Virus record (IMG/VR): IMGVR_UViG_3300002141_000152
Location: 32,001-96,000 of that record
Direction: 5' to 3' (one strand)
Length of the DNA: 64,000 nucleotides
Source: a virus
Shown here: in pieces, positions 14,407-64,000 of the stretch
How the letters are laid out: each line of letters opens with the position of its first letter
How positions within the stretch are numbered: position 1 is the first letter of the stretch
The notes under the pieces: generated by a model
What the model saw: the letters and a program-made list of their open reading frames with translations, nothing else
Told to the model about the DNA's origin: nothing
Databases searched by the model: none
Made by a program: the position numbers and the translations under genes

Positions 14407-14408
14407 AA

Positions 14409-14948: not shown

Positions 14949-14965
14949 TTTAAAATGGTTTTTTA

Positions 14966-16164: not shown

Positions 16165-16218
16165 GGTTGTATGTTTACAATATCTTTTATTGATAAATAA
16201 TAAAAAGTTTTAATCTAG

Positions 16219-16692: not shown

Positions 16693-16734
16693 ACTTTAGC
16701 TTCTTTTTGAGTATAATACTTTAAAGTTTATAAC

Positions 16735-17181: not shown

Positions 17182-17197
17182 AAAAATCTGCCATGGA

Positions 17198-18769: not shown

Positions 18770-18781
18770 TGCTGCCTTTTT

Positions 18782-19549: not shown

Positions 19550-19553
19550 CTTA

Positions 19554-20198: not shown

Positions 20199-20272
20199 AG
20201 ATTCACGTATAGATTTAGAAGAAATACTTTTATTTTTTCAAAAATATTGGTGTATTTAATATACAGGTAATA

Positions 20273-21856: not shown

Positions 21857-21926
21857 AATCTTTTTCTTTTATTTATATATTACTACGCACCTTACTTTTA
21901 GTTTAAACTTATGTCAAATATTTAGT

Positions 21927-23369
21927 ATGATATTACATATGGAAGATACGACACGCCAAATTAAAAAACTTGATCTTAAGCAAAATGCAATAAAGATCTT
22001 AATCAACAGTATATATGGTGCATTTGGAAATAAGTGGTTCTACTTTTATAATCCGGATATTGCTCAGTCAATTACTCTTCAAGGCCAAGACCTAATTAAA
22101 TTTTCAATTAAGGCAGTAAATCACTATTTTCAAGAAAAGTGGCACTTAGATACTGAATTGCACAAGACTTTAGGTATTGATCAATATGTTATTCACCAGG
22201 TCACAGAAGAGTCTGCAATCTACACAGATACTGACTCAATATATGTTCAATTTGATTCTGCGCTTAGTTCAATAGAGGGCATCACGTTAACTCGAGATGA
22301 ATCATTGAAATTATGTGTCGCAATTGACCATCATCGACTTTCTAACTATTTTGATGTGTGTTTTGAAAAATATGGTCGAGTATTTAATACCAAGAATCGT
22401 CTTAAGTTCAAGCTTGAAAATCTATCTGAGTATGGTATTTGGTTGAAGAAGAAAAACTATGCAATTAAAGTAGCATACGACCCAAATCCAGCAATGGAAC
22501 TAATGACTCATGAAAAGAGATACTTAGTCATAAAGGGATTAGATTCAATTAAAGGTTCATATCCAATCTGGGCAAGAAAAAAACTTGTTGCTCTTACTGA
22601 ATATGTCATGGAGATAGGAAAGACTCTAGATCTTGAACGCGATATTCTTCCTAAACTAAAGAAATTAAAAGAAGAATTTAATGGTCTATCAATAGATGAG
22701 GTTGCTCTAAACTTTAAAATTACAGTATTTGATAAGTATATTGATAATATTGAAACCTGTTCTTTAAGAAAAGGAATATCGATATTTGCAAGATCTGCTG
22801 CATATTATAATCATCTTCTTATTAAGACTGGTTTAAATGTAAAGTATGCTCCGCTCAGAGAAAAGGACAAGATCAAATTTTATCACTGTGCACCAAATGA
22901 ACATAATTTTGATATATTTGCCTACTCTCCTGCAAGTTTTCCAGCAGAGCTTGCCGTACCGATCGACATGAACCATCAGTTCTTTATGTTAATTATTGAA
23001 CCTGTAAATAAGTTACTTGCTGCCATGAAAGTTGGTGCAATAGACATACATCTAAAACGTAGTATCGATGTAATAACCGTAAAGAGTAAAAAACCATTAA
23101 CTGACGATCAGATATATCCTCTTTATGTAGTTGACCAGGAGTCACTAGCATCAGTAGAAGTTCCAGAAAAGTTTTGGAAGATTATTGGTAACCCTGATGC
23201 AGATATTCCAGAAAGCGATTTTGCTGAGTACTTATCGTTAATAACTACCTATGGTCTAAATTCAATAATAGTTCCAAAGTTTGAACTTGAAAAATATCTC
23301 AAGCGTATAACTAAAAAGAAAGCAGTTTCTCTTAGTAAACTCGAAGAGGCTGACGAAACCGAAGATTAA
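21927..23369 (+). CDS. Family-B DNA polymerase, C-terminal subunit (split gp43B-like)
   Basis: Begins at motif B (KILINSIYGAFGN), has motif C YTDTDS and KKNY; no exonuclease domain or motif A. Confidence 0.88.
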   Translation: MILHMEDTTRQIKKLDLKQNAIKILINSIYGAFGNKWFYFYNPDIAQSITLQGQDLIKFSIKAVNHYFQEKWHLDTELHKTLGIDQYVIHQVTEESAIYTDTDSIYVQFDSALSSIEGITLTRDESLKLCVAIDHHRLSNYFDVCFEKYGRVFNTKNRLKFKLENLSEYGIWLKKKNYAIKVAYDPNPAMELMTHEKRYLVIKGLDSIKGSYPIWARKKLVALTEYVMEIGKTLDLERDILPKLKKLKEEFNGLSIDEVALNFKITVFDKYIDNIETCSLRKGISIFARSAAYYNHLLIKTGLNVKYAPLREKDKIKFYHCAPNEHNFDIFAYSPASFPAELAVPIDMNHQFFMLIIEPVNKLLAAMKVGAIDIHLKRSIDVITVKSKKPLTDDQIYPLYVVDQESLASVEVPEKFWKIIGNPDADIPESDFAEYLSLITTYGLNSIIVPKFELEKYLKRITKKKAVSLSKLEEADETED

Positions 23370-24511
23370 TGTTTAACTTGGAAACGGCATATTCGGTAAC
23401 TGACTTCTGCCAAGACGTTCTTAAAAAACGTTTTCCTGGAGACGTGATTCGCCAGCAGATAAATGACACCGACTCTGATAAGCTTAATTTTGCGTGTCCC
23501 TATTGCGGTGACTCAGAACGTGACCCAAATAAAAAACGTGGAAATCTATACCTGTCTACCCAAACATATAAATGCTTCAATGATGGCTGCGCAGTTTGGA
23601 TTAAACTTGAAAAATTTATATCTAATTTTGCACAAAAATATCAACTTGGTGTTCCTGGAGTAAGCACCAAACGACTTGAATATAAACCGGTTACTTCAAC
23701 AAAGAAGCGAGGATTTTTAATTGAATTTCTAATTAATCGAGAAGTTGGTCAAAAACTGCTAGTCTTCAATGACTTAATTCGTCGATTTGCACTTAGTCCA
23801 TGTTCAGGAGCTGATCCTGGAAGTCCAATTGGATTATTTGTTGACAAACGAAAGATTAATCACCTTCCAGTATTTGAACAGAGTTGCTATTATGATTCAC
23901 GAGAAGATAAAATTTATCTTTTTAATCTTGACCTTAAGTCAGGTAGGGTACTTGGCTTTGCCATTCGATACATTGATGATAACTATCCTGGACCAAAATA
24001 TAATATCAAAAATTACACTGATTTTAAGAAGACTGGTCTGCTTAGTGATTTAGAAGACGAGTTCATAACTGAAGTCAATTCAATAAATAACTATTTTAAT
24101 ATCCTAAATATTAATTTCACTCAAATAATTACAATCACTGAGGGACAAATTGATGCAATGTTTGTTCGAAACTGCTTAGCAACAACTGGCGTAACCAAAA
24201 GCAAACAATTGTTGGCCAGCCTAGTAACTAAGAAGAACTCACGAATCTTATTTGATAATGATAAAGCCGGAAAGGAACAAAGTCTTGAATTATTAATGAA
24301 AGGATATACTGTATTCTTATGGTGTAAAATAACGCATGACTTGCGTAAAACATACCCGACCGCTGCTAAAATTATTCGCGATGAGCTCAAAGATATTAAT
24401 GACCTATATCGATTCTTACTTATTCGCGATTCTGCGCTCACATTTGACTCGTTTAATGACTTTCTGGATAAATACTTTTCAAATTCTGCATTCGATCTAA
24501 TGCTTGTTTAA
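23369..24511 (+). CDS. DNA primase (gp61-like)
   Basis: Zn finger CPYCGDS...YKCFNDGC; TOPRIM TEGQIDAMF, FDNDKAG, KDIND. Confidence 0.9.
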   Translation: MFNLETAYSVTDFCQDVLKKRFPGDVIRQQINDTDSDKLNFACPYCGDSERDPNKKRGNLYLSTQTYKCFNDGCAVWIKLEKFISNFAQKYQLGVPGVSTKRLEYKPVTSTKKRGFLIEFLINREVGQKLLVFNDLIRRFALSPCSGADPGSPIGLFVDKRKINHLPVFEQSCYYDSREDKIYLFNLDLKSGRVLGFAIRYIDDNYPGPKYNIKNYTDFKKTGLLSDLEDEFITEVNSINNYFNILNINFTQIITITEGQIDAMFVRNCLATTGVTKSKQLLASLVTKKNSRILFDNDKAGKEQSLELLMKGYTVFLWCKITHDLRKTYPTAAKIIRDELKDINDLYRFLLIRDSALTFDSFNDFLDKYFSNSAFDLMLV

Positions 24512-24537
24512 TAAATAATAAAAATATTAGACAAATC

Positions 24538-24870
24538 ATGAAAAGAATCATGTCACTTAACGAATTTTCAAATTGCAATACAAGTGGCGCGAATCCAGCG
24601 GATGATTCAGTACTTGATGAATTAAATCTTGATGAAACTATGCTTGATGCGTTAGTTGAACTTGTTGGTTCTGAAGAAGAAGTTGCAGAAGCTGCAGAAG
24701 CATCATTTAATGACTTAACCAATTCTTTTGAAAAGAATGAGCTTGAAATGACAGAAGAAGATGTTCCTGAAAAACTTGCAATCGCCGCACTAATCGTTAA
24801 ATTAGTTGAACTTGGTAAAATTGGTCCAGAAGAAGCAGATCAGTTTATTTCAGATCACTTAGAAGATTAA
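24538..24870 (+). CDS. Acidic protein with CTS-like leader
   Basis: MKRIMSLNEF; ATAAATAA at 24511-24518; terminator downstream. Confidence 0.65.
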   Translation: MKRIMSLNEFSNCNTSGANPADDSVLDELNLDETMLDALVELVGSEEEVAEAAEASFNDLTNSFEKNELEMTEEDVPEKLAIAALIVKLVELGKIGPEEADQFISDHLED

Positions 24871-24903
24871 GTGTTATTTTCTCTTGCCACTGGGTATAGA
24901 GCC

Positions 24904-24930
24904 AAAAGGAGCCAACTCAGCTCCTTTTTT
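24904..24930 (+). terminator. Intrinsic terminator
   Basis: AAAAGGAGC-loop-GCTCCTTTTTT. Confidence 0.7.
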
Positions 24931-24945
24931 AATATATAATAATAT

Positions 24946-25449
24946 ATGGCAAAAACGGAAAGAGACATACACGACTTTTTAAAACCTCAGAATGGTCGAG
25001 TCAAGCAAGGGTATTTTACTCCGCGCAACCCACACAAATATAGAGGAGATCTCAGTAAAATAATATATCGTTCAAGTTGGGAACTTAAATTCTTAAGCTA
25101 TTGTGATCAGAACGACGCAGTAATTGAATATGCATCAGAACCAGTAGGCATAAAATATGCGAATCCAATTCTAAAGAAGGAAAGTACTTACTGGATTGAC
25201 TGCTATATGAAAACTAAGAATCATGACGGGTCTTTTACTAAGTGGTTAATAGAAGTCAAACCAAACAAGTATTTGACTCCACCGGAACCCCCAAAGCGAC
25301 TTACTGAGAAACAGACACTAAACTATGCTCGTCATGCAAAAGCATATATTATCAATAATGCAAAGTTCGCAGCTGCTAGACTCTATGCAGGTAAAAACGC
25401 AATGCGCTTCGGGATAATAACCGAAAACTTTTTATTCAATAAGGTGTAA
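24946..25449 (+). CDS. Head completion nuclease (T4 gp4/TnsA-like)
   Basis: QGYFTPRNPHKYRGD..IIYRSSWE, ASEP, YWID, IEVKP, IITE. Confidence 0.9.
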   Translation: MAKTERDIHDFLKPQNGRVKQGYFTPRNPHKYRGDLSKIIYRSSWELKFLSYCDQNDAVIEYASEPVGIKYANPILKKESTYWIDCYMKTKNHDGSFTKWLIEVKPNKYLTPPEPPKRLTEKQTLNYARHAKAYIINNAKFAAARLYAGKNAMRFGIITENFLFNKV

Positions 25450-25469
25450 AATATCTAAAGTTTAGCAGT

Positions 25470-26087
25470 TTGAAGAAATTTGAAGAAATAGAGAAAAATA
25501 ATGGTCAATTTGATCTAACTCAAGTTGCAGAAACTTTTGGAGTCATTCAGCGTCGTAACCAATTTATACCTGGTAGATTTTATTCTCTTAATATTGTCAG
25601 TAATGTTCCTAACTTAACAGAAGAAATAGTTCCTCAGCTTTCTAGCGGCAAACCATACTATGATTTACGTCCATGTGGATTAGTTCTATTCCATGATAAT
25701 TGGAAAGAAACTACGCTTATTCTTAATTTAAGAACAATGCCAATTCCAGTTAGTGCAAAACTGTTAGAGGCATACTATGAATTTTCTGCAAAGAACGGAT
25801 TTCAGAACTTGTATCGAGATGGTAAACTTATGCCATTGACTGACCGACAATTAATAGATCAGCGCTTCTATTTAGTGAACACGACTATTCTGAGCCAGAC
25901 TATTGGTTTTTCTAACTTAAACTATTCAATAAATAAATATAATATAGATGATATCGCAGAAGCTCGATTAATAGATTGGGATAATTTTGGAATGATGGTT
26001 CGACCTAGGTTTTCCCAGGTCGGGCTTTTCCCAGATAACCTTAGCATGGAACGAGTTTTCGAAGAGTTTATAGCAAATTCAATATAA
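25470..26087 (+). CDS. DNA end protector (T4 gp2-like)
   Basis: PGRFY...PYYD..P...LNL..P pattern; follows gp4. Confidence 0.55.
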   Translation: MKKFEEIEKNNGQFDLTQVAETFGVIQRRNQFIPGRFYSLNIVSNVPNLTEEIVPQLSSGKPYYDLRPCGLVLFHDNWKETTLILNLRTMPIPVSAKLLEAYYEFSAKNGFQNLYRDGKLMPLTDRQLIDQRFYLVNTTILSQTIGFSNLNYSINKYNIDDIAEARLIDWDNFGMMVRPRFSQVGLFPDNLSMERVFEEFIANSI

Positions 26088-26100
26088 TAATTAATAACAT

Positions 26101-27807
26101 ATGAGTGGATTTTTAGACACACCAAGAGGGCGATCTAGTGGTAAATTAGCTGGACTAAGTAAATTCGGTACAAAATACGAAGACTTACTTCTTAAAAACT
26201 CGCAAGCAATTGGTTTCATTGAGAGCCAAATTGCATCTCGATCAACTCGACTAGGTCCTGGTGATGATTTACTTAAATTCTCAATGGCAATTGCCGATAC
26301 TACTTCACAGCTTCGATCAAAGGCAATTGCCTTCTTTCAGTTGGATTACGTAGTAAAACGTGAACGTCTTCGTGATGTTGCATCAAATGGTGAAATAGAA
26401 TTTATCCTTGAAACAATCGTAGATGATATGATTGTAAACGATGATGAAAATCGTTTTTGTTATGCGACTGACTTAACTGGAAAAATCATGTATCGTGGAT
26501 CTACTAAAGAGGAACGACTTAATTTCCAAGAGAAAGTAGTAAAGAGACACGTTGATAATTTCGACAAGATGTATAATGCTTGGGGATTTAGTGGCGGTAT
26601 TTCTGCATGGCAGTATGCATTCCAATTCCTAGTAGAAGGTCACCTGTGTTTTGAAATCATATATAACGATTTACAGAAACCAACTGAAATTATTGGTTTT
26701 AAAGAACTTGACCCTGCAAGTATTGCACCACAGTTACAAAAAGATGCAAAAGGCAAGCTTTTCTTACAGTGGTTACAATATGACCAATCAAATGGAGGAA
26801 CTAGAGTATTAAATGACTCGCAAGTCATCTATATTTCATATGCAAATCACTTTAGAACAAAACGTGTTTCATTTGTTGAACGGCTGATTCGGTCGTTTAA
26901 CTTACTTCGGGTTATTGAACATAGTAAAGTTATTTGGCACGTAATGAATGCGCCAATTCGTTTGACTACAACTGTTCCAGTAGGTTCTAAGAGTTTACAA
27001 AAGAGTCAAGAAGACGTTCGTGAATTTATGAACTTATTAAAAGAAGATATAGGATTTAATGGAGATACTGGTGAATTAACAGTTGATGGTAAACCAAATA
27101 TTTTATTTTATAAGAATTATGTTCTACCTCAAAATGATCAAAATCAATCTGTAAAAATAGAACCGCTACAGATGCCTGGACCAAACTTGTCTGGTTCTGA
27201 ATTACTAAATTACTTCTATAAGAAATTAAAAATGGATTCGAAAATCCCATATTCTCGTTGGGAAGGTCAAAGTGGCATGGGAGCATTTACGCTTAATTCC
27301 GAAGGTATTAGTCGTGAGGAAATTCGTTACCAAAAATTTATTAAACGATTACGTTCTGCATTCTCAGAATTGATGATTAAACCGTGGTACTTACAAATGT
27401 GTTTAGATTTTCCCGAATTAGCTGATGACCATAAATTCGTAAATGCAATCGGTATTACTTATCATAATGATAATGTATTTGAAGAAATTAAAGAAAATGA
27501 AATTGAAGCGAAACGTATAGCATCGTTTACTGCTAAGAAAGGAATCACTAAAGATGACGGAACACCATTCTTCTCAACTGAGTACTTGATTCGTAAAGAA
27601 CTTAAAATGACTGAATCTGAAATTGAAGCAAATCAACAGTGGTTTGATTCAAAAGAGGAAGATGAACCAGATGCAGTTGCTGGTCCAGCAGGCGGTGGAG
27701 CAGCAGGCGGTGGAGGAGCAGCAGGCGGAGCAGCCGCAAGTGCTCCAGCAGAAGGTGGTTCTGAAACGATTGAAGGTGGAGAAACAAAAGGCACAGGTCA
27801 ACTCTAA
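26101..27807 (+). CDS. Portal protein (T4 gp20-like)
   Basis: EIEFILETIVDD, LRVIEHSKVIW...AP, YFYKKL...KIPYSR, ISREEIRYQKFIKRLR. Confidence 0.88.
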   Translation: MSGFLDTPRGRSSGKLAGLSKFGTKYEDLLLKNSQAIGFIESQIASRSTRLGPGDDLLKFSMAIADTTSQLRSKAIAFFQLDYVVKRERLRDVASNGEIEFILETIVDDMIVNDDENRFCYATDLTGKIMYRGSTKEERLNFQEKVVKRHVDNFDKMYNAWGFSGGISAWQYAFQFLVEGHLCFEIIYNDLQKPTEIIGFKELDPASIAPQLQKDAKGKLFLQWLQYDQSNGGTRVLNDSQVIYISYANHFRTKRVSFVERLIRSFNLLRVIEHSKVIWHVMNAPIRLTTTVPVGSKSLQKSQEDVREFMNLLKEDIGFNGDTGELTVDGKPNILFYKNYVLPQNDQNQSVKIEPLQMPGPNLSGSELLNYFYKKLKMDSKIPYSRWEGQSGMGAFTLNSEGISREEIRYQKFIKRLRSAFSELMIKPWYLQMCLDFPELADDHKFVNAIGITYHNDNVFEEIKENEIEAKRIASFTAKKGITKDDGTPFFSTEYLIRKELKMTESEIEANQQWFDSKEEDEPDAVAGPAGGGAAGGGGAAGGAAASAPAEGGSETIEGGETKGTGQL

Positions 27808-27838
27808 ATAACCGATTTACTTACTCTTATTAAACAGC

Positions 27839-27864
27839 AAAATCCCCAATTGGGGATTTTTTTT
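27839..27864. terminator. Bidirectional intrinsic terminator
   Basis: AAAATCCCC-AATT-GGGGATTTTTTTT between convergent genes. Confidence 0.75.
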
Positions 27865-27866
27865 GT

Positions 27867-28244
27867 TTAATCGTAGAAGATTGAGAGTGGATTTTTAAGC
27901 TCCGGTACATCTATAAGTAGGACAAATATTTCACGGCCGGCTCGATCATCTGAATAGGATGCTGGACGAACTCCAATATTTCTTTTTCTAGCTTCGCCAA
28001 CATACTTGTTAATTTGTCCGCCTGCTTCTTTAGTAAGAGCAAACGGATCAATTGTAAATTCAAATAGGTACTTTTCGACATCGAGTCCAAAATCAGGTTC
28101 TCCAAGAACTTCTCCTTTTTTAGTGAATAGAGTCATCTTAATCTGCTGTAGAGCAGACTCAAGGTCCTCGTGCACTTCGAGTTGTTCTGGTCGATATGCT
28201 GGGTCAGTTTCAGGTCTAAGATAAAAATCTCTAAGTTGCGACAT
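27867..28244 (-). CDS. Baseplate wedge gp25-like protein
   Basis: LFTKKGEVLGEPDFGLDVEKYLFE. Confidence 0.85.
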   Translation of the reverse strand: MSQLRDFYLRPETDPAYRPEQLEVHEDLESALQQIKMTLFTKKGEVLGEPDFGLDVEKYLFEFTIDPFALTKEAGGQINKYVGEARKRNIGVRPASYSDDRAGREIFVLLIDVPELKNPLSIFYD

Positions 28245-28246
28245 AG

Positions 28247-29242
28247 TTAATATATTTTCAAAGAATATTTAAGTCCTTTTTTAAGAACTGCTTCTTTTTT
28301 ATTATTTATTTGAGTGTCCTTTTTTACAGTGTATGTTGACTTTACTTCAATTACTCTATTTTCAGAAATAATGTAGATATCTGGATAATATCTGTGAGTC
28401 TTTCCATTTACATCATACAATATACTTCCAATCTGCTCGGATATTTCAACGTTCCCGACAACTATATCTTCTTCTTTATATTCGTTTAACAAAAGTTCAT
28501 CTATACCTTTCCACTCGTAACCTTGAACATGAACTATCTTACCTGATGGAAAAATGTAAGGTTTACGTTTATACATTCTACTTTCAAATACTTTTTCATT
28601 TTGCATTGGATGAGGTACTCCATATTTTTCTATAGATGAAGATATTGCAGCATCCTTAAATTTTTTGGTTTTACAGAATGAATTTACTCCATATTTTTCA
28701 ATACATGTCTTTCTTCTTTTTTCATTTATCTTTTCTTTATTTTTAGAAAGTGATGCACGCACTGCATCAATTAAATTAACCGATTGTGTATTCCATTTAA
28801 CTCCTCTTCTTTCCAAGTTAGTCGCTTGAACTTTTTCTCTCCATTCTGGCGTTTGTGATATATTTTTTACTCCATGCTTCTTCATTACTCCATCCTCAGT
28901 CTTAATCAAATTATGCTTTTTCTTACACTCAATACTTGAACACGTAGTTATGTAGTGTCCTTGTAATTTAGGATTAATATGTGAACTTACGATTCTAGCG
29001 TTCCGTTCCTTAACTGATCTAGGTTTTCCACAATATCCACATGTTAAAACATAATCTATTTGATTTATATAATGATATAACCGCTGATTTGTCGTAATTT
29101 CAGAATAATATTCATCTAAAAATGAAGTTGCTTCCAATAATTCATCCAACATTCCGTCTTTATTTTTCTTCAGCATTAATATTGCAGAAGTAGGTCTACT
29201 TGGATTAAATTGGGTTTTTAAATATTGCGATAGATGTGACAT
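28247..29242 (-). CDS. Free-standing PD-(D/E)xK endonuclease with KYGV repeats
   Basis: CGYCG; K(H/Y)GV repeats; YYPDIYIISENRVIEVKS. Confidence 0.75.
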   Translation of the reverse strand: MSHLSQYLKTQFNPSRPTSAILMLKKNKDGMLDELLEATSFLDEYYSEITTNQRLYHYINQIDYVLTCGYCGKPRSVKERNARIVSSHINPKLQGHYITTCSSIECKKKHNLIKTEDGVMKKHGVKNISQTPEWREKVQATNLERRGVKWNTQSVNLIDAVRASLSKNKEKINEKRRKTCIEKYGVNSFCKTKKFKDAAISSSIEKYGVPHPMQNEKVFESRMYKRKPYIFPSGKIVHVQGYEWKGIDELLLNEYKEEDIVVGNVEISEQIGSILYDVNGKTHRYYPDIYIISENRVIEVKSTYTVKKDTQINNKKEAVLKKGLKYSLKIY

Positions 29243-29300
29243 ATATTTGTCTTTTAATTATATATCTCAATACACTGTTAGAAAATACACCAGAGTGTAA

Positions 29301-30035
29301 TTATTGATGAACTAACAGCATCCAATCGGGAGTGTTTTCTCCCTTCATCATTGCTTTAACCTCTTCCATCTCCTTTTCAGCAGTAGTTGTGATATTCTGA
29401 TAATTTACAGTAACGTCTCCAGGCAAAGTATAATTGAATGTTTGTAACATATGCGCAAGTCTTACTTTTGAGTGAGCACGAACATATCTTTGAAACACCT
29501 CATCCTCATATAATTTATCTGGTTCAAGTTTTTTATAAACTCGAAGAACTGCATTAGCCGGTGGAGTTCTACCTAAAACTCCAAGCATTTTAGTGTTCTT
29601 ATTATAATCATATGCAATAGAGTCAATCATAAAACTTTTAGTAAGATCTAAGAATGAGAAAAGAACAGTACGATATACTAAACTTTCTCCAACAAATGGA
29701 GTCAAGTAGATTTCAGATCCAATAAATTTTTGTTCACCAAAATCTCGATCAATTGTTCCAAACATTGAAACTCCGCGTGCTTCTTTAAAATCAACTACAA
29801 ATTGTACACAGTCTGGTAACTGAATCTGTCTAAACTTTTTGAATGTTGCATTTTTAAACAGCTCAAGAGGTAATAATAAGTATCTGCTCTCTACTGCATG
29901 TCTCCAATTATCCCAAAAATATCGACAGTCATTTTCGATGATACGCTTAATCTCTTTTTCTGGAAGAGAATATGGTAATGCACCAGAGAAGGTGATTTCA
30001 TTATTAATATCTTCTATAAGTTCTTTTTCGCTCAT
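29301..30035 (-). CDS. Neck protein (gp13-like)
   Basis: RYVRAHSK...TLPGDVTVNY...AEKEME resembles the gp13 C-terminus; start taken at MSEKEL. Confidence 0.7.
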   Translation of the reverse strand: MSEKELIEDINNEITFSGALPYSLPEKEIKRIIENDCRYFWDNWRHAVESRYLLLPLELFKNATFKKFRQIQLPDCVQFVVDFKEARGVSMFGTIDRDFGEQKFIGSEIYLTPFVGESLVYRTVLFSFLDLTKSFMIDSIAYDYNKNTKMLGVLGRTPPANAVLRVYKKLEPDKLYEDEVFQRYVRAHSKVRLAHMLQTFNYTLPGDVTVNYQNITTTAEKEMEEVKAMMKGENTPDWMLLVHQ

Positions 30036-30042
30036 CGTTAGT

Positions 30043-30489
30043 TTATTGATTTGATCCCGGCCCGCCACCTGAGCCATCGTCACTGAATCTAACACTAGAT
30101 TTATCAACATCGACTGTAAAGCCTTTGTCTCCTAGCATTCTACCCATTGCCCGCTGGTTCTTTTTTGCAATAACTGCATCCTGTTTACCTGCACGTTCCA
30201 TTGATTTATGCATCATCTGGCCAAGTGCTTTTTGTTTTAATTTCTTTTTCCAGTCACTATGAAAAATAAGATTCATAGCTCTGGTAATATCGATATCCTC
30301 AATGGTTCCAGTATATCTACCAGGATTTCGAGCAGCTTTTTCATTTGCAAGTTCCTGTGCGATTGCCATTACTGAAGTATAGACTCCAGCTAGAGCGCTT
30401 TGTACCATGCCAGTAAAGTTAGTCGGGTAAACGACTTCTTTTGTTGCCTCATTAATGAATTCCTGGTATGATTTTAATCTATTTTCCAT
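30043..30489 (-). CDS. Putative internal head protein
   Basis: Leader LKSYQEFINE closely matches T4 CTS MKTYQEFIAE. Confidence 0.65.
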   Translation of the reverse strand: MENRLKSYQEFINEATKEVVYPTNFTGMVQSALAGVYTSVMAIAQELANEKAARNPGRYTGTIEDIDITRAMNLIFHSDWKKKLKQKALGQMMHKSMERAGKQDAVIAKKNQRAMGRMLGDKGFTVDVDKSSVRFSDDGSGGGPGSNQ

Positions 30490-30821
30490 TATGCTGTAGT
30501 GACAGGCGCAGCAGCTTTTGCAGCTTCTGCTTTTTGTTGTTCTTCTTGCTGTTTGGTAGAAGCGGCAGCATCATATGCAGTCTGTAACTTATTAAGTTCA
30601 TCCTGTTTCATAACTGTCTGCTTTTGTAAAGTCAATAATTCATTCTTCTTTAGTTGAAGAGCATCATATTGAGTTCTTAGTGCTGGATCATTTGGAATAG
30701 GGTCAGTTGCACCTTCTTCTTGGACCATTTGTGGATTTGCGCCAATCTTTAATTCAGGAGCAGCCTCTTTTTCTGCGGTTTTCATGAACTTCTTAAAACT
30801 TGAAACATATGATGCTGCCAT
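30489..30821 (-). CDS. Coiled-coil putative head protein with CTS-like leader
   Basis: YVSSFKKFMK; late motif upstream. Confidence 0.6.
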   Translation of the reverse strand: MAASYVSSFKKFMKTAEKEAAPELKIGANPQMVQEEGATDPIPNDPALRTQYDALQLKKNELLTLQKQTVMKQDELNKLQTAYDAAASTKQQEEQQKAEAAKAAAPVTTA

Positions 30822-30842
30822 TTAATTGTATATTTTTATTAT

Positions 30843-31124
30843 TTATTTTGAAAAATGCTTTGCCGCTTTTCTAAAATCATGGTACGATAATACATTCTTC
30901 TTCTTAATCTTCTTTGGGTTTAATCCGAAGGCGCTGGTTAATCTTCCGCCGCTTAGGAAAGGTGAATTATTCCAGTGTGCTGGAATAGATCCAGATGATC
31001 CTGCATAAAACATCATTGCGCTTGCACGATCGGTAGCTGGGCTCATAATAATATCTGCTGGATCTCGTTCCATTGAATCAGTTCCCATTACTTCAACTAT
31101 ATAGTTTGCAAAGCCACTAACCAT
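30843..31124 (-). CDS. Hypothetical protein with CTS-like peptides at both ends
   Basis: MVSGFANYIVE; VLSYHDFRK. Confidence 0.55.
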   Translation of the reverse strand: MVSGFANYIVEVMGTDSMERDPADIIMSPATDRASAMMFYAGSSGSIPAHWNNSPFLSGGRLTSAFGLNPKKIKKKNVLSYHDFRKAAKHFSK

Positions 31125-31125
31125 C

Positions 31126-31578
31126 TTATCCTGGAAAATTTAGAGAATCTTGTGATTGATCTAATGAAAAAGGTTGTACTGGAGTAGGAGGAGCAACCTG
31201 TGCATCTTGCGGAGCAACTGCTGCTGAAAATGTTAAATCATGATCATCCGGTTGATTCATATTAGACATTGCGTGATCTCCAAACATACTTTGATTCTTT
31301 TCAATATATAATTCAAGTCCCATTGCTACCAATGGATCATTCTCTTTACATTTGTTGATGAAATCGCCAACAGTCATTGTCATTGGATCAACTGGAGCAG
31401 ATGCTTGACCTTCTGCTGGAAGTGCAAGCTGTTGTGCTGGATAATCGATTGGCATTTCTGGAGTTTCTGGAGCTGCTGGTTGAAGTCCTAGTTCTGTCGT
31501 TGCATCTGGATTGATTGCTGCAGGCGGTGCTGCTTGTTCAAGAAGTCGTCTAATGCTTTTAAAATTTTTCATTCTCAT
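31126..31578 (-). CDS. Pro/Ala/Gln-rich protein with CTS-like leader
   Basis: MKNFKSIRRLLE; late motif at 31612-31619. Confidence 0.6.
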   Translation of the reverse strand: MRMKNFKSIRRLLEQAAPPAAINPDATTELGLQPAAPETPEMPIDYPAQQLALPAEGQASAPVDPMTMTVGDFINKCKENDPLVAMGLELYIEKNQSMFGDHAMSNMNQPDDHDLTFSAAVAPQDAQVAPPTPVQPFSLDQSQDSLNFPG

Positions 31579-57890: not shown

Positions 57891-58212
57891 AACACTAATA
57901 TTTTAATTTATTTATCACTCCCACTCGGCCACTAACTAATAAAATAGAGAAGGTAAAGTGGCAGACAGCCCTAATAATTCTACTACTCATATTATTATCA
58001 ACGCTAGAGAGACTACACTAGACCAGAGTCACCCAGCTAGAAGAGACTCGGTAGAACCACCTAGTAGCAGCCAAGTCAGGTACCTTCACTACGGAGTCCC
58101 GGCTACCAAGAGACCGACTAGACCTAGGAGACCCGACACCGAAGGTTACACCTCCACTACGGAGTCCAGTGACCAGACACTAGTCGGCCATTGACCAGTC
58201 ACCATACCAGGA

Positions 58213-58290
58213 GTCGCCAACCCTAATACGAGACGGTGGCCAACCTCAATACGAGAAGTCGCCAACCTCAATACCTGGCAGCGCCCTAAT
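58213..58290 (+). repeat. Iteron-like tandem repeats, period 22-23 bp
   Basis: GCCAACC(CT/TC)AATAC at 58216, 58239, 58261, plus partial fourth copy. Confidence 0.8.
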
Positions 58291-58456
58291 TTGTAATGCA
58301 AAGCGCGGGCGTCCGCCTACTTTCACTACGGAGTCCCAAGAAAAACGCGTGCCACCGACTATCAACACTTGCCACCTGTGGCATGTTGCTACCAGGTGCT
58401 ACTCTTTCCAGATTGTGGCATGCTCGGCGGGATAAATAAAAAGAAAGAAGTAACTT

Positions 58457-59146
58457 ATGTACGCAAACGAAGCAATCGACTTGCTGGGGTGCAGCTATAA
58501 CGGCCTACGTAAGTGGGGCAGCCGTGGCAAGATACGCCGGTGGAAGGACGACCATGGCAAGTGGATCTATAACGACGATGACGTCTGGTCGATGATCGGC
58601 AAGCGGGTCTCAAAAGAAAGCCTGACGACCATCTACTGTCGAGTAGCCGGGACTACGGAGTCCGACCGCAAGGTCATGGCCGAGCAGCAGCGGATACTCC
58701 ACCAATGGTGCTCTGCTCGTGGACTCTCAGTAGACAGGCAGTACGAGGACTGGGCCCCATCTACGGAGTACTCCCTGGAGGAGAGACCTGGTCTGCACCT
58801 CTTGCTACAGGATATAATTCAAAAGCGTGTCTCCGCCGTGGTGGTCGAGACTCCTGACAGGCTGGCTCGTATTGGTCGAGAGTTGATCGAACAGCTCTGC
58901 CGTTACTACGGAGTCCAGCTCGTGTATGTAAATAGGGTGATTCAAAAACCCGAGTACCTAGCCGAGCAGGAGGCAGATATTCTCAGGCTCCTAAAGAAGG
59001 CCAAGATTGAGAGACTAGCTGAGGTTGGTGTCGAGACCCTGCCTAGACCAAAGAAGGTAAAGTTAAAGGATCCAGGCAAGATTGTGCCGACTTGGGAGGG
59101 TGAACCCTTACCTGCTAATTCGCGAGACTTGAGTGACTTGATATAA
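58457..59146 (+). CDS. IS607-TnpA-like MerR-HTH plus serine-recombinase-fold protein lacking the catalytic Ser
   Basis: EAIDLLGCSYNGLRKW...GKI; IYCRVAG (canonical YARVS); RPGL..LL; VVVETPDRLARIG. Confidence 0.82.
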   Translation: MYANEAIDLLGCSYNGLRKWGSRGKIRRWKDDHGKWIYNDDDVWSMIGKRVSKESLTTIYCRVAGTTESDRKVMAEQQRILHQWCSARGLSVDRQYEDWAPSTEYSLEERPGLHLLLQDIIQKRVSAVVVETPDRLARIGRELIEQLCRYYGVQLVYVNRVIQKPEYLAEQEADILRLLKKAKIERLAEVGVETLPRPKKVKLKDPGKIVPTWEGEPLPANSRDLSDLI

Positions 59147-59162
59147 TTCAATTTTGGAGAAA

Positions 59163-59657
59163 TTAAAGAAGAGAGGAATCATGTACAAAGATAAAATCAA
59201 AGGTCAGCACAGAGTCAATTTCGCTGTGGCCATAGAGAGCCTGCTGAATTGCAGTGTCTAGGTCTTCCTCCGCTAGATCACTTGCGATGGTTAAGATAAA
59301 TTTATAGAGAGGCTTGCCATAGTAAAGAGATCGATACTTGTCGGATCTAGTCCCCTCTGATCCCTCAAACTGGACGTCGGAGACGAGACTCCGGTCGACA
59401 GTAGAGACGCTGTCTGCAACAAGTTCAACAAACTGGTCGATGTCTATTTCTTCTAGTGGCAAATTGTGCCGCATGCGAACGCCAAGAGTGACCTTGTACC
59501 TCCACTCAAAATCTTCTGATTGGAGTGGAATCCCGGACTCCTTAGCTAGGGTAACGTATTCACTCTTGCTAATGAGTCCACTGGTTAAGAGGTCACGTAA
59601 GACCTGCTCCTCGTCGTCTCGTGATTCCCGAAGATACCTCTTAAATGACTTTAACAT
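59163..59657 (-). CDS. CTS plus SHOCT-like plus variable domain protein
   Basis: MLKSFKRYLRE; LRDLLTSGLISKSEY. Confidence 0.6.
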   Translation of the reverse strand: MLKSFKRYLRESRDDEEQVLRDLLTSGLISKSEYVTLAKESGIPLQSEDFEWRYKVTLGVRMRHNLPLEEIDIDQFVELVADSVSTVDRSLVSDVQFEGSEGTRSDKYRSLYYGKPLYKFILTIASDLAEEDLDTAIQQALYGHSEIDSVLTFDFIFVHDSSLL

Positions 59658-59676
59658 TGACTATTAGTTATTTTAA

Positions 59677-59703
59677 TTATTTATCCAGGGCGCCCTATAA
59701 ATA
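59677..59703. promoter_or_regulatory. Back-to-back late promoters
   Basis: ATAAATAA on minus strand (59677-59684) and exact T4 late consensus TATAAATA on plus strand (59696-59703). Confidence 0.65.
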
Positions 59704-59718
59704 AAAATAAAAAAGGAA

Positions 59719-59868
59719 ATGGCCAAGAAATCCACCAACTCTGCCACTGCTACAGCAGTCAGGGTTAAAGTTAAGAAGAAGAGACCGGGTGTACACTCGA
59801 AAACCAAGTGTGATGTGAACAAGCGAAGCAAACACTGGGTCAAACTGAGTAGAGGACAGGGTAAGTAA
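59719..59868 (+). CDS. 49-aa basic peptide ending RGQGK (not in ORF track)
   Basis: MAKKSTNSATATAVRVKVKKKRPGVHSKTKCDVNKRSKHWVKLSRGQGK; TATAAATA upstream, hairpin downstream. Confidence 0.7.
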   Translation: MAKKSTNSATATAVRVKVKKKRPGVHSKTKCDVNKRSKHWVKLSRGQGK

Positions 59869-60156
59869 TCCAGTTCTTCAGTCCGTTATTTAGAAGGGAG
59901 CCTCAGACGGGACTCCCTTCGCCAGTTATATTGATACTTTAGTTGAGGGTCGGAGTCACTCCTGTGTCGCGAGTTGAGGTGACTTTAGGTACTGAGCCGG
60001 CTGGAAAAGTGTCTCTACGCCAGAGTGGTCTGGGCTCCATGGCTGCGGGTGAGTCCAAGGCTCCCGCGGGCAGGGGATTTGCCAGAGACCCGACCGGCGC
60101 CACTAGCCAGAGACGCTAGCACGCACCCGCCTGCGGGGAGCCGTCCCTTACTCCAT

Positions 60157-60184
60157 AAAAAAGCCCGCGATTAAGCGGGCTCTT
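60157..60184 (-). terminator. Intrinsic terminator for the 60204-61385 gene
   Basis: GCCCGC-loop-GCGGGC with a T-tract on the minus strand. Confidence 0.7.
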
Positions 60185-60203
60185 ACGGTCGTCAAACCAA
60201 TAC

Positions 60204-61385
60204 CTACAGTGTCGCGAATTGTGCGAATTGCAAGTCGTATCCGTCCTTAGTACCTTTACCGAAAAGGTGTCCAGCTTGTTCTTTCAATTGGTGTTTGTTC
60301 TCCAATTGCAGGCCGGAATTGTTGGAACCAAGGAATGTCATTGAGTTTACCACGTCCCAAATACTTTGGCCGGTCTTGATAAAGCTCTTCTGCTTATCGT
60401 TCAATCTCATTGGGTCTTGTCCTTTGCGTACGATACGTCCCATAGTCTCAGCATGTGAGTGGAAGTATTTACGAGCAACGGTGTCGATGAATGCTTTCTT
60501 CAGGGTTGGGTCGTCTTCTCGAACCATTCGTTGTGAGCTAATCATGGCATTCTCGACTTCAAGCAAGCTTGCTTTTGTATTCACAGCGGACTCTAGTGCG
60601 GTGTTGAAACCTACCGGAATAAAACCAGCTTTATTCATTGTCTCAATACGTCCAAGGAAATTCTTAATATCGTCGGCACTTGTTCCACCTAGGCGAAACT
60701 TCTCTTCGAAATTAATATCACGGTTTGCACCGATCGCACCTTGTCCTAAGCTTACACGAAGTCCATTGCTACATACCAATCTCTGATTGTACATTTCAAC
60801 TGTCGTGTCTTTAGAAGACTGAATAATCGAGAAACCAAATTTAAAGAACTCGTCTTTACCGGCTCCAGGAAAACCTACCTCTTCTCCATTCAGCAAGTTG
60901 ATAACTGTTTTTCCACTATGTGGATTGAAGTCAATTGTCTCGATACTTAAGTTTGAGTTACCATTCATAATACGAGATGTCATATCAAAAACAGTTTCAT
61001 TGGTCATTCTACGAAAACGTTTAGGATCGCAGATGTCAATAATTTCGCGACTTGTTGGGCTAGCAATCAACATGATTTCTGTACCTCCATGCGCTTGACG
61101 ATAGGATTTCAAGCCATTCAATAAACTTGTAGCAATCTTGCCGTCCTCGTTCTTAATCATCTCACGAGTTAAGGACTGATTTACCTTTAGCATTCCTGCT
61201 AATTTTTGAAAGAATCCTTGGCCAACAGGTACAGCTTGTCCGCTGACGTTGATTGTTCCTCGTGCGATGGAGTTGTCGTCCAGCTCGATTGCGCCTAGTG
61301 GCACGGTTTTTGTAATACACTCAGCTTTTGCGAGTGTCTCGCGAATCTGTTCGAATTCGTGGTCTGATACTTCTTTTTTTGCCAT
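60204..61385 (-). CDS. DUF932-like protein
   Basis: RLVCSNG motif and SIWDVVNSMT helix. Confidence 0.55.
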   Translation of the reverse strand: MAKKEVSDHEFEQIRETLAKAECITKTVPLGAIELDDNSIARGTINVSGQAVPVGQGFFQKLAGMLKVNQSLTREMIKNEDGKIATSLLNGLKSYRQAHGGTEIMLIASPTSREIIDICDPKRFRRMTNETVFDMTSRIMNGNSNLSIETIDFNPHSGKTVINLLNGEEVGFPGAGKDEFFKFGFSIIQSSKDTTVEMYNQRLVCSNGLRVSLGQGAIGANRDINFEEKFRLGGTSADDIKNFLGRIETMNKAGFIPVGFNTALESAVNTKASLLEVENAMISSQRMVREDDPTLKKAFIDTVARKYFHSHAETMGRIVRKGQDPMRLNDKQKSFIKTGQSIWDVVNSMTFLGSNNSGLQLENKHQLKEQAGHLFGKGTKDGYDLQFAQFATL

Positions 61386-61403
61386 GATAAGATTTTTTTT
61401 AAA

Positions 61404-61431
61404 TTGGTTTGACTTAATTATAATACTAAAA
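61404..61431 (-). promoter_or_regulatory. Repeated promoter element TTTTAGTATTATAATTAAGTCAAACCAA, second copy at about 62597-62624
   Basis: Identical ~28-bp block upstream of two consecutive genes. Confidence 0.7.
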
Positions 61432-61466
61432 ACTTACTACATTTTAAAACTATTGTATACAAATAT

Positions 61467-62582
61467 TTATTCCTGTTTCGCAGGTTCTTCTACGGAGTCC
61501 ACCGTTTCTGGCTTCTTAGTAAGGAAGATTTCTTCAAACTTACGAGTCAGGTCGTGTTGGCGTATTGACTCCTTGTTCTCAATCTTATTCATCTCCTCAC
61601 TTTCAGTGTATCGTTCTGAATCGTAAACTACTGCACCCTGTTTATCAAGCGTGTAATATAATCTCTTGTTTACTCCGCCACCACCTCGACGATTTTTTGA
61701 AAACTCAACATATCGATTACCACTTAGGTCAAAACGAATTTCAAGCATGGCAGTCGTTGCGTGTTTTAGGTAGGTGCTACCGACATAGGTACCTCCTTTG
61801 GTCATGTGTTGAATTGCCAAGACCGCGCAGCCATCTTTTTCAGCAGCAGTAATCATCATGCCAGTTAACCAAGACTCGGCTTGCGTTGATTTCCATTGCT
61901 GTGCTTCTTTCAATTTTACTAGAACATCTTGGTAGGAGTCAAGCACAATAATATCATAACCTCCATTGAAGGCTACCGATAATACTTCACTCAGCTTTCC
62001 GTTAGCAATATAGTCCATCAGCAATAGTGTTGGTACCTTACCGATTGATGGAGTTTTCTTGTAGTAAAACAGGATATCATTACGGGTCATTTCACTTGAT
62101 ATATAAAGTATCTTTGCCTCAGGATTGGTGTCCTGTACAGAAGAAAGAACGTCTAATAAGATAGTCGACTTGCCGACACCCGACTCACCAATTACAATAT
62201 TAACAGTTCCACCATAGACTCCACCGCCAGGTTCATGGTCCGAGAAGAGGTCATCGATCTTTTTGCCAGTCTTGTGCAACTTGAATTCAGGAAAGACGAG
62301 GTCTTCTACTTTAATAACGTTCGGCACGATTGGGACTACGGAGTCCAGCTCGACTGCACTCACATCAGTTTTGGTTTCGCGCACTCCGCCTTCTGCTAGG
62401 ATTTTCTTCAGTACTCCATTAAAGAGTCCATACGAAACTTCTTCATCGAGTGCAGCGCCGACTCGATTTTCAAAATCGATAAATGAGTCTAACACTTTAC
62501 CTCGCGGTACCTTGCCGTCGTGCGACTTGTTAATCCATCGACGAACACTCTGTTCTTTTTTACCGCCCTTAATTTCTATCAT
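61467..62582 (-). CDS. RecA-superfamily ATPase (RadA/Sms-like)
   Basis: GESGVGKST, LYISSEM, IVLDSYQ, HMTKGGTYVGSTYLKH, SKNRRG. Confidence 0.82.
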   Translation of the reverse strand: MIEIKGGKKEQSVRRWINKSHDGKVPRGKVLDSFIDFENRVGAALDEEVSYGLFNGVLKKILAEGGVRETKTDVSAVELDSVVPIVPNVIKVEDLVFPEFKLHKTGKKIDDLFSDHEPGGGVYGGTVNIVIGESGVGKSTILLDVLSSVQDTNPEAKILYISSEMTRNDILFYYKKTPSIGKVPTLLLMDYIANGKLSEVLSVAFNGGYDIIVLDSYQDVLVKLKEAQQWKSTQAESWLTGMMITAAEKDGCAVLAIQHMTKGGTYVGSTYLKHATTAMLEIRFDLSGNRYVEFSKNRRGGGGVNKRLYYTLDKQGAVVYDSERYTESEEMNKIENKESIRQHDLTRKFEEIFLTKKPETVDSVEEPAKQE

Positions 62583-62646
62583 AGTTTTAGATTTTATTGG
62601 TTTGACTTAATTATAATACTAAAAAACTGAAGATTTATAAAACTTA

Positions 62647-63135
62647 TTACAAACTTTCTTTTGACAATTCATCAAGTCTAATGCGCTCAGTATTTGATAA
62701 ATTAGTAAGACCTACCTTACTGACAAGATCGAGCAACTGATCTAGCGATAGCTTCACCTCAACTCTAGCTTCTACTGGAATATCCTCAGCTAGGGGTTCA
62801 GGTGTCGTGCCTTTCTTAATCTCCCGAGTCAGTAACTCAAATGCCTTACTTACAGCTGGTCCAAAGTCTTCGGAATTTATTGCAAAACCGGGAGAAGTCG
62901 TGTCCATTACAAGTACAGGTAGCCTATCGCCGGTTCCCTTGCCGACTTCATAGAATCCTTCGGCTATCTTTGTCGGGCTCCAATCAGTATAGATTAAAGT
63001 TATCATACCCTTATTTGGAACTGGTATGCCGAGTGCTAGGCGAGCGTTGCAGCCTGCAATTGCGGCAAGCAGTGGCATCTCATTACCGACAGGTGCGTCC
63101 TTGCCGAACCTGAATATTAGAACTATTCTTTTCAT
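62647..63135 (-). CDS. Hypothetical protein
   Basis: C-terminal LDQLLDLVSKVGLTNLSNTERIRL helical motif. Confidence 0.55.
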   Translation of the reverse strand: MKRIVLIFRFGKDAPVGNEMPLLAAIAGCNARLALGIPVPNKGMITLIYTDWSPTKIAEGFYEVGKGTGDRLPVLVMDTTSPGFAINSEDFGPAVSKAFELLTREIKKGTTPEPLAEDIPVEARVEVKLSLDQLLDLVSKVGLTNLSNTERIRLDELSKESL

Positions 63136-63140
63136 ATTAT

Positions 63141-63488
63141 TTAGAATTTATAAAGTAAAATAACTCTATTGATAAAATTATCAAAGTCATCTTTTGTAAT
63201 TTGATCAGGTCTCACTGGATAAGGATTGAGGCACATCATCATGTCTCTCTCTTCACGTGCAGTATTTGCTGCAGTTGGATATGGTGTTGCATCGTGCCAT
63301 AATTGTACTAAATCCTGATCATAATAGATTACGACAATTGGTGGCTCTTGATCTGGAATCGGATTTGGACTAACTGAACACTGGAAAAAGTTTCCAAACT
63401 CTTCATCTGGGCCATTCTCTTGCGCGGAATCAAGATCGATTAATAGATCTACTCCAAATAATTCTTGTAATTTAGTGTGGGTTGTCAT
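63141..63488 (-). CDS. Hypothetical early protein
   Basis: ORF behind repeated promoter. Confidence 0.55.
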   Translation of the reverse strand: MTTHTKLQELFGVDLLIDLDSAQENGPDEEFGNFFQCSVSPNPIPDQEPPIVVIYYDQDLVQLWHDATPYPTAANTAREERDMMMCLNPYPVRPDQITKDDFDNFINRVILLYKF

Positions 63489-63530
63489 GTGTGTTTAAGT
63501 TTTAATATTGAGTAAATGTAATAAATTAGT

Positions 63531-63554
63531 TTGACACTAAAAAATCGGGGCAAA
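63531..63554 (-). promoter_or_regulatory. Repeated early promoter TTTGCCCCGATTTTTTAGTGTCAA, second copy at about 63820-63843
   Basis: Identical 24-mer; each followed on the minus strand by TA(C/T)ATTTAC, similar to the Bacteroidetes -7 element TAnnTTTG. Confidence 0.7.
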
Positions 63555-63779
63555 TTAAAACCAGCTCTTACAATTATAGCATTTAGATGAGTCATCTACT
63601 TTGTATGCGCCAATTCTCCAAAACCACTTTTCAGTATTTCCTGGGTCAACGGCCGATGCATATACTTCGCGCGCTCCACAGTGTGGACACTGCAGCCCCT
63701 GTTTGTCAGGCTTCTCTCCGCATTTTTCAATAATTGCAGATTTAATTGATTCTTCTAAAATCTCAGATAGTGTATCCAT
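63555..63779 (-). CDS. Small Zn-ribbon protein
   Basis: CPHCG...CYNC; start corrected to MDTLSE. Confidence 0.6.
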   Translation of the reverse strand: MDTLSEILEESIKSAIIEKCGEKPDKQGLQCPHCGAREVYASAVDPGNTEKWFWRIGAYKVDDSSKCYNCKSWF

Positions 63780-63942
63780 ATGTCTTGTTTTTAATGTTAA
63801 GTAAATATAACTACTTATGTTGACACTAAAAAATCGGGGCAAAATATTTTTTTCGCCGCGAGTGGGTCTCTATCAGAGACGCGCCCAGCGCACGCCGAAA
63901 GCAGAGACGCCACGGATCCACTCGCGGCCGGTTTTTTAAAAC

Positions 63943-63971
63943 AAAAAAAGCTCCAATCTCTTGGAGCTTTT
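63943..63971. terminator. Intrinsic terminator
   Basis: AAAAAAAGCTCCAA-TCTC-TTGGAGCTTTT. Confidence 0.75.
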
Positions 63972-64000
63972 GATAAGTCAGTATTTAATTGTTATTCAAT

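Follow-up and report, generated by a model that had tools for sequence, protein, structure and literature searches.

Transposons of the IS607 family are recognised by their mobile context: the transposase TnpA comes with a TnpB partner, several copies are present, and the element ends in GG with subterminal motifs. TnpA dimers bind cooperatively to multiple short repeated motifs, as well as non-specifically, and form a filament that synapses a second DNA (PMC6188088). By analogy, a TnpA deprived of its nucleophile would be expected to retain motif binding, filament formation, and the capture of a second DNA. Here, we describe a TnpA-like protein of this kind, encoded by ORF 58457-59146 of a 64,000-nucleotide stretch (the window, bases 32001-96000 of the 108,970-bp phage fragment IMGVR_UViG_3300002141_000152 from IMG/VR, with a completeness estimate of 43%), together with a short site that recurs around and inside its gene and along the neighboring block of early genes. 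The initial annotation of the window had proposed that a domesticated transposase recognises these repeats, either as a substitute for the small terminase or as an organiser of the origin or terminus. The domestication is supported by what follows, while the packaging and origin roles are not.

A transposase-like protein without its nucleophile

The 229-aa protein matches the Pfam family Resolvase (1.9e-12), more weakly HTH_17, and a transposase family among the PHROGs (phrog_6620, 2e-23). Its AlphaFold (AF2) model (pLDDT 72) comprises a winged helix-turn-helix (HTH), a resolvase fold, and a disordered tail, and the best structural matches in the PDB are the catalytic domains of IS607-like TnpAs (6dgc, 3lhk, 3ilx, and 3lhf), in agreement with the architecture assigned initially. 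Codon 64 (GCC, 58646-58648) encodes an alanine within YCRVAG and, in the family profile, this Ala64 aligns with the nucleophile serine of the solved IS607-like TnpAs, as had already been noticed. A model of the homodimer, with a score of 0.29 and a mark of 0.42, weighs neither way on dimerisation.

Homologues of the protein form at least 120 clusters with 47-96% identity, all of about 229 aa. Related loci from viral and metagenome collections (36-96% protein identity, 34-62% GC) were retrieved with the family alignment as query, a single-protein query having given none. In the closer subfamily (120 clusters), the nucleophile column holds Ala in 97 cases, Gly in 10, Thr in 7, Asn in 2, and Val in 1, and never Ser; Y60, R62, Thr66, R135, and R138 do not vary, and D134 hardly does. 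The distant subfamily (36-40% identity, 191-220 aa) carries Gly, Ala, Asn, or Lys at the nucleophile position, with one exception (L106), and its D-R motif is mostly C-R or S-R, the aspartate being mostly gone. The homologues show a conserved serine loss and repeats located at the gene, the two points on which the initial annotation had proposed to compare them; clade and motif co-occur perfectly.

The gene is under purifying selection, with dN/dS values of 0.07-0.28 against its relatives. In five phage records there is one Resolvase-domain gene each and a domain search found no TnpB, as the initial annotation had held, while neither transposon ends nor multiple copies are seen at the gene, whose neighbors are the same in all relatives. 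Given the conserved family, the purifying dN/dS, the single copy, the absence of TnpB, and the constant neighbors, the gene is an old, selected, and immobile descendant of an IS607 transposase, and not a decaying insertion. Its product is predicted to be incapable of cutting DNA. No ancestral insertion sequence was seen: a scan of genome contigs for two close copies of the site gave 74 matches, about half that number being expected by chance, and the multi-copy matches inspected were tandem repeats of 11-42 bp in unrelated bacteria.

The C-terminal tail (PGKIVP.WEG.P.P..SRDLSDLM, residues 206-229, window 59080-59146) is found in the closer subfamily only and looks, in its sequence, like a short docking peptide for some partner. 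A sliding clamp was considered as this partner and set aside, the Pfam profile of the gp45 clamp (PF02916) having given no match even in controls.

The family is spread over dozens of jumbo phages, a group of large, uncultured phages from lakes and other aquatic samples, and homologues also sit on contigs of 200-270 kb. All relatives found in the homologue search are metagenomic, cultured phages being without the family. A chimeric assembly at the junction was ruled out by the order of late genes, recombinase-like gene, and early block, which is repeated in several independent records.

A near-palindromic site selected at the DNA level

The 11-mer CTACGGAGTCC occurs in seven exact copies in the window, all on the plus strand and at the positions listed initially (Table 1). 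One-mismatch copies are found at 58761 (plus strand, also reported before) and at 59535 (minus strand), the latter with a broken core and probably due to chance. These nine matches compare with 0.25 expected from shuffles. The whole contig contains nine copies of the 11-mer, plus strand only, and 16 of its 9-base core CTACGGAGT, again with none on the minus strand, between contig positions 90089 and 108316 (window 58089 onward). The first 90 kb of the contig contain no copy of the core, so that the motif, counted along the contig as the initial annotation had suggested, is confined to its last ~19 kb and not evenly spread. Six copies lie within 58089-58906, three of them in a GC-rich non-coding leader and three inside the ORF. 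The remaining ones are spaced by ~0.7-3.7 kb (mean ~1.3 kb) along some 45 small minus-strand genes. The array described at the gene is thus real as the densest cluster, although the sites as a whole are dispersed, with ~14-18 copies over 19-25 kb.

A logo built from 321 distinct copies reads KK-ACTCCGTAG-T-VV alone, with no further element within 25-34 nt, and therefore the site is neither one half of a two-part promoter nor a hairpin. It is a 14-bp near-palindrome, KKACT-CCGT-AGTMM, in which the half-sites KKACT and AGTMM surround a 4-bp spacer. Among the ACT-N4-AGT words of the loci, the spacer CCGT is found 281 times and the next spacer at most 6 times; the palindromic spacers ACGT and CCGG are found 0 and 2 times. 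Since CCGT is nearly exclusive, the polarity of the site is carried by two spacer base pairs that are strictly kept.

The copies inside genes point to selection on the motif DNA, as first claimed. In 36 distinct family genes, codons 65-70 (GGG ACT ACG GAG TCC GAC) show almost no synonymous change. Ser69 is TCC in 34 of 34 genes, a codon used for 10% of the serines elsewhere in these genes, while the flanking invariant residues R62, V63, and R71 vary their codons freely. The presence of copies in two reading frames of the gene (T-T-E-S and Y-Y-G-V) and antisense in the RadA-like gene was confirmed; on the sense strand of the latter, ACTCCGTAG stands in frame as D-S-V, with a placement conserved among relatives. 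In other sublineages, the DUF932-like gene encodes the same L-R-S as CTC CGT AGT (one phage) or CTA CGG AGT (others), and hence the site was flipped in place by two synonymous changes.

The leader and the ORF (57.9-59.1 kb) stand out by a GC content of 50-59%, up from ~34%. In close relatives, only the last ~185 bp of the leader are conserved as DNA, and the copy at -130 to -143 is present in most relatives whose locus spans that stretch.

Site domains and their orientation

In the related loci retrieved, the same 9-mer is the most or second most frequent one and strictly one-stranded. No copy is present in a control set of 47 loci (723 kb), taken from phages whose IS607-like TnpA is of the ordinary kind. 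Five whole records (G000-G004, contigs 80-128 kb long) contain 14-19 copies each, confined to one stretch of 19-25 kb, and the densest cluster (5-8 copies) is always at the recombinase-like gene, near one end of this domain. The strand ratios are 16:0, 14:0, 18:1, 17:0, and 16:0 for G000 to G004. When six whole records were searched, the 6-17 copies in each of five shared a single strand, G002 (18:1) being the exception.

The direction of the sites relative to the genes varies. In type A phages, which include this phage and most relatives, the early-gene coding strand reads ACTCCGTAG. In type B (G004, L094, and L097), the early, RadA-like, and recombinase-like genes carry the site reversed while the gene layout is unchanged; thus, the copy-8 region of the RadA-like gene holds a flipped site, there encoding T-T-E-S. 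In L096, L102, and L103, both senses are mixed. The polarity reported for the window therefore stands for this phage, but the motif is a near-palindrome that points the other way in one sublineage and both ways in another. What is conserved in these comparisons is the agreement among the sites of one genome and not their direction relative to transcription or to a gene. Flipped and mixed orientations consequently disfavor a promoter, a simple polar barrier, or a signal acting on RNA. Distant members have one copy between ATAAATAA and the ATG, pointing in either direction, as would suit an operator and not an RNA signal or a promoter.

The early block and its promoters

The late-type box ATAAATAA in front of the recombinase-like gene is shared with the virion genes, as the initial annotation had noticed. 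In the contig, 28 genes have ATAAATA in front of them at a distance of 10-41 nt (mostly 24-27), and almost all of these genes belong to its structural or late part. The early block has promoters of its own, consisting of 18 cassettes of ~65 bp (with ..TTAAAAC following the elements given in Table 1), all on the minus strand, up to contig 108857 (window-equivalent 76857). These cassettes are often behind a terminator hairpin and resemble the promoter-early stem-loop modules of T4-type phages. The site domain coincides with the cassette-bearing block of small co-oriented genes, which extends to the contig end, and stops where the ATAAATA genes begin.

The order of neighbors is common to the relatives: a late gene, the 393-aa DUF932-like protein, the RadA-like ATPase and, farther on, a sigma factor. 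The 393-aa gene holds a site copy (at L-R-S) in type B and mixed-orientation phages. The sigma factor (phrog_351, 1.7e-43) is encoded inside the early block on the minus strand (contig 98763-99479, window-equivalent 66763-67479; in L129 at L129:9763-10479), and in type A a site copy overlaps its stop codon or comes directly after it. More generally, in type A the motif is often found 0-14 nt after stop codons or beside terminator hairpins.

Proposed mechanism

The explanation that best accommodates these observations, and that we hold tentatively at somewhat less than even odds, is that of an exapted, autoregulated late binder that organises or silences the early block. The exapted TnpA would keep its winged HTH and a resolvase body able to form dimers and filaments, and a dimer would bind the 14-bp KKACT-CCGT-AGTMM, contacting the half-sites ACT and AGT around the asymmetric spacer. 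The protein would be made from its T4-type late promoter and would control its own gene through the copies around and inside it, which in distant members would be the copy between promoter and start codon. It would also occupy the early block at its ~16 mutually co-oriented sites. There, a number of dimers on the repeated motifs could nucleate and bridge a larger nucleoprotein complex, as the real IS607 TnpA does, and late in infection this complex would fold the early block, insulate it, or silence it. From the sequence comparisons, it is probable that the site is read by this protein; that its binding folds, insulates, or silences the block is possible but clearly less certain. A more specific version, to which we give a rather low probability, proposes that filaments of the dead transposase synapse co-oriented sites, folding the early block into a switchable nucleoprotein domain that would shut off early genes late or fix the packaging and re-injection of the block. 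The need for parallel synapsis would then account for sites that agree with each other and not with the genes.

The link between protein and site is circumstantial but consistent, comprising their co-occurrence, the cluster at the gene, the frozen copy within it, and the copy at an operator position. Several points weigh against the proposal. The sigma factor, the RadA-like ATPase, and the DUF932-like protein co-occur with the site equally well. The N-terminal HTH is conserved only moderately whereas the site is invariant, an invariance that also leaves no protein-site covariation to compare. The distance between sites and early promoters is not fixed, with only 4 of the 16 sites of this phage lying within 160 nt upstream of one, and silencing late in infection is read solely off the late promoter and the location of the sites. 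Furthermore, a plain operator needs no co-orientation, yet polarity within a genome is nearly complete. Any mechanism has to meet this as yet unexplained requirement that the sites agree with one another even where their direction relative to the genes flips.

Alternative explanations

The equal conservation and synteny of the sigma factor, RadA-like, and DUF932-like genes, together with the contrast between a moderately conserved HTH and an invariant site, would also be expected if another conserved factor of phage or host read the sites and the recombinase-like gene were a mere target or the gene at the domain boundary. We consider this unlikely: it is at the TnpA-like gene that the densest cluster and the copy in operator position are invariably found, the near-palindromic site suits an HTH protein acting as a dimer, binding to arrays of short motifs is established for IS607 TnpA, and a host factor is hard to reconcile with phages of 34-62% GC. 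Less probable still is the role put forward in the initial annotation, namely a pac site or a replication origin or terminus with the dead recombinase as small-terminase (TerS) substitute or initiator. Direct repeats in or beside the gene of their binding protein do recall pac sites within small-terminase genes and iteron origins, of which P22, lambda O, and P1 RepA are examples, and late expression would suit packaging. However, the sites are dispersed over 19-25 kb with no single locus, the fold is that of TnpA and not of TerS, and a late promoter fits an initiator poorly. In G004, the large terminase (TerL, ~10.5-12.5 kb) lies 85 kb away from the recombinase-like gene (96.5 kb) and is abutted by a separate, unannotated 245-aa ORF in the TerS position. 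Pfam searches of five records with PF11053 (T4 TerS) and PF02916 (gp45 clamp) gave no matches, controls included, and are uninformative.

The near-perfect co-orientation within genomes and the strictly kept asymmetric spacer could alternatively serve a direction-dependent process, such as a Tus-Ter-like barrier, a KOPS-like guide for a translocase, or strand-specific nicking. This is improbable, given that in type B the sites are turned round with respect to early transcription, the gene, and the cluster-to-domain geometry alike, that L096, L102, and L103 contain both orientations, and that nicking would fall to a protein without a nucleophile. A marginally lower probability is given to sites that still work as recombination cores, through Thr66 or a partner recombinase, for excision, amplification, or cassette exchange in the early block. 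An inverted repeat around an asymmetric spacer is indeed the design of a recombination core, the catalytic Arg/Asp and Thr66 are invariant in the closer subfamily, and homology breakpoints fall within 30 nt of sites in 12.5% of cases, against 7.2% for gene boundaries. This enrichment is modest, though, and could be produced by a conserved island at which alignments stop; in the distant subfamily the Asp is lost and no hydroxyl residue is conserved; the five records hold no second Resolvase-domain gene; and metagenome contig joints are found at early-promoter cassettes and none at sites, a comparison made on metagenome and metatranscriptome contigs. A candidate cassette swap between two sites was rejected, as the segment encodes diverged homologues and not different cassettes. 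A still-active recombination system is therefore unlikely. Very unlikely, finally, is an RNA-level signal (for processing, antitermination, or translation) or a promoter of the phage sigma factor. The co-orientation of the type A motif with early genes, its proximity to stops and terminator hairpins, and the sigma factor gene within the domain agree with such a role, but type B carries the motif antisense to the same genes. The RNA signal was rejected on this flip and on the leader copies of the recombinase-like gene in both orientations, and the promoter on the logo, which lacks a -10 or -35 partner element, and on the separate 18-copy early-promoter cassette. Thus the autoregulated late binder is retained as the preferred explanation.

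Other features of the locus

Table 1. Features of the locus. Positions refer to the window unless another record is named.
Feature	Position	Strand	Remarks
GC-rich (47-55%) non-coding leader	57958..58456	.	three site copies and other short repeats
Site domain, window part	58089..64000	+	runs on to contig 108316; 16 core copies in total
Site copy 1	58089..58099	+	intergenic
Site copy 2	58157..58167	+	intergenic
Site copy 3	58326..58336	+	131 bp upstream of ATG
Late-type promoter box ATAAATAA	58432..58439	+	25 nt before ATG
Nucleophile-less IS607-TnpA-like gene, 229 aa	58457..59146	+	N-terminal winged HTH, resolvase fold, disordered conserved C-terminal tail
Predicted DNA target of the 229-aa protein			GGACTCCGTAGTCC
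Site copy 4	58653..58663	+	codons 66-69 (T-T-E-S), right after the nucleophile-replacing Ala; most conserved copy
Site copy 5	58761..58769	+	9-mer core, S-T-E-Y; kept in closer subfamily
Site copy 6	58906..58916	+	Y-Y-G-V; kept in closer subfamily
Late gene between recombinase-like gene and early block	59163..59657	-	ATAAATA at -27
Syntenic neighbor, 393 aa	60204..61385	-	no Pfam match; look-alike clusters partly with DUF932
RadA/RecA-like ATPase (AAA_25)	61467..62582	-	syntenic; two site copies
Site copy 7	61490..61500	+	RadA-like sense strand D-S-V near C-terminus; conserved position
Site copy 8	62336..62346	+	RadA-like sense strand D-S-V-V, ~residue 80
First of 18 early-promoter cassettes	63801..63850	-	GCCCCGATTTT..GTGTCAA..TATATTTAC
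149-aa early protein	contig 98026-98475 (window-equivalent 66026-66475)	-	site copies on both sides, here and in L049
90-aa early gene	contig 99969-100252 (window-equivalent 67969-68252)
Site domain, G001	12572-31305
Site domain, G002	23965-48766
Site domain, G003	44513-66694
Site domain, G004	77988-103145
GTCTCTGCTATCGCGCGTCGTAA...CCCGTACACGGGAG stretch	L131:6486-6560, L011:9192, L013:7823, L072:8506

The leader contains further short repeats. GCCAACC(C/T)(T/C)AATAC occurs three times with a period of 22-23 bp (58216-58274), without conservation in close relatives. TGCCAC and GTGGCA are each present twice in the interval that separates site copy 3 from the late box (58344-58421), and the same stretch in relatives holds other, phage-specific repeats, such as TGAGCAA (three times) or TGATAGC (twice); these variable repeats may constitute a second, variable operator. 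Many intergenic sites have GTCTCT(A/G)G or its complement at a distance of 6-34 nt, and this second motif also recurs upstream of early promoters (e.g., L130:10400-10480, L132:14553-14640, and window 57990-58130); it may be the site of another factor. An Rfam scan of 57-64 kb gave nothing credible, and a literature search on the motif gave primer matches only.

Joints of metagenome DNA contigs fall at the early-promoter cassettes (e.g., L129 7162->16163 and 14625->16170), which suggests that these cassettes mediate gene shuffling. A lake metatranscriptome contig over the 90-aa early gene has a word depth of 343, much higher than elsewhere in the region; other early genes and the DUF932-like gene are covered by RNA contigs as well, and these contigs carry no information on strand, level, or timing. 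The 149-aa early protein evolves fast and has a signal-like N-terminus and a HELGH zinc-metalloprotease motif. In several relatives, a conserved GC-rich stretch (GTCTCTGCTATCGCGCGTCGTAA...CCCGTACACGGGAG) directly follows a terminator and a site copy, and may be the gene of a small structured RNA. Away from the early block, a 527-aa protein (window 20273-21856, minus strand) matches HNH/homing-endonuclease PHROGs (1.5e-116), with a Mom-like DNA-modification family as a weaker match.

Comparison with known systems

Domesticated transposases acting as sequence-specific DNA binders are well known in eukaryotes, while to our knowledge they are rare in bacteria and phages. The literature search turned up no report of an IS607 TnpA that lacks its nucleophile and has a defined genome-wide set of sites. 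New here are the near-palindromic anatomy of the site with its strict spacer, the frozen codons, the coincidence of the site domain with the early block, the copies in operator position, and the reversed or mixed orientation. For dozens of phages, the sequence alone supplies a protein, the 14-bp site that it likely binds, and every position of that site, which makes the hypothesis directly testable. If the early block is indeed organised or silenced in this manner, it would represent a new kind of temporal genome partitioning in large phages, as well as a natural experiment on serine-recombinase synapsis without chemistry.

Among the systems with which the locus can be compared, Tus-Ter, FtsK-KOPS, and Chi share the strong co-orientation of a short motif within a genome, but here the orientation relative to genes is not conserved, and the sites are near-palindromic with operator-like placement. 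The iteron systems of lambda (O/ori) and P1 (RepA incC/incA) likewise have repeats in or beside the gene of the binder and a copy at an operator position. Unlike them, this locus has a late-type promoter, sites across 20 kb, and a dead recombinase instead of a Rep-type initiator, and no AT-rich unwinding element was identified in this comparison. The MatP-matS system, which organises the Ter macrodomain of E. coli, is similar in type of function only: a short near-palindromic site is repeated some 15-25 times in one genome domain and is presumably read by a protein that forms dimers and can bridge sites. The folds are unrelated, and here the sites are co-oriented, have an asymmetric spacer, and lie in a phage early block, with the bridging being only predicted.

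The closest relatives in sequence and structure are the TnpAs of the IS607 family (IS607, IS1535, and ISC1926; PDB 6dgc, 6dgb, 3ilx, 3lhf, and 3lhk), which have the same domain order, with a MerR/excisionase-like winged HTH followed by a resolvase fold, and which bind short repeated motifs beside their own gene, form filaments, and bridge DNA. The protein described here differs from them in the lost nucleophile serine, the absence of tnpB and of element ends, a fixed syntenic position in the phage genome, and the extra conserved C-terminal tail of the closer subfamily, while its sites extend over 19-25 kb instead of the ~70 bp at the element ends.

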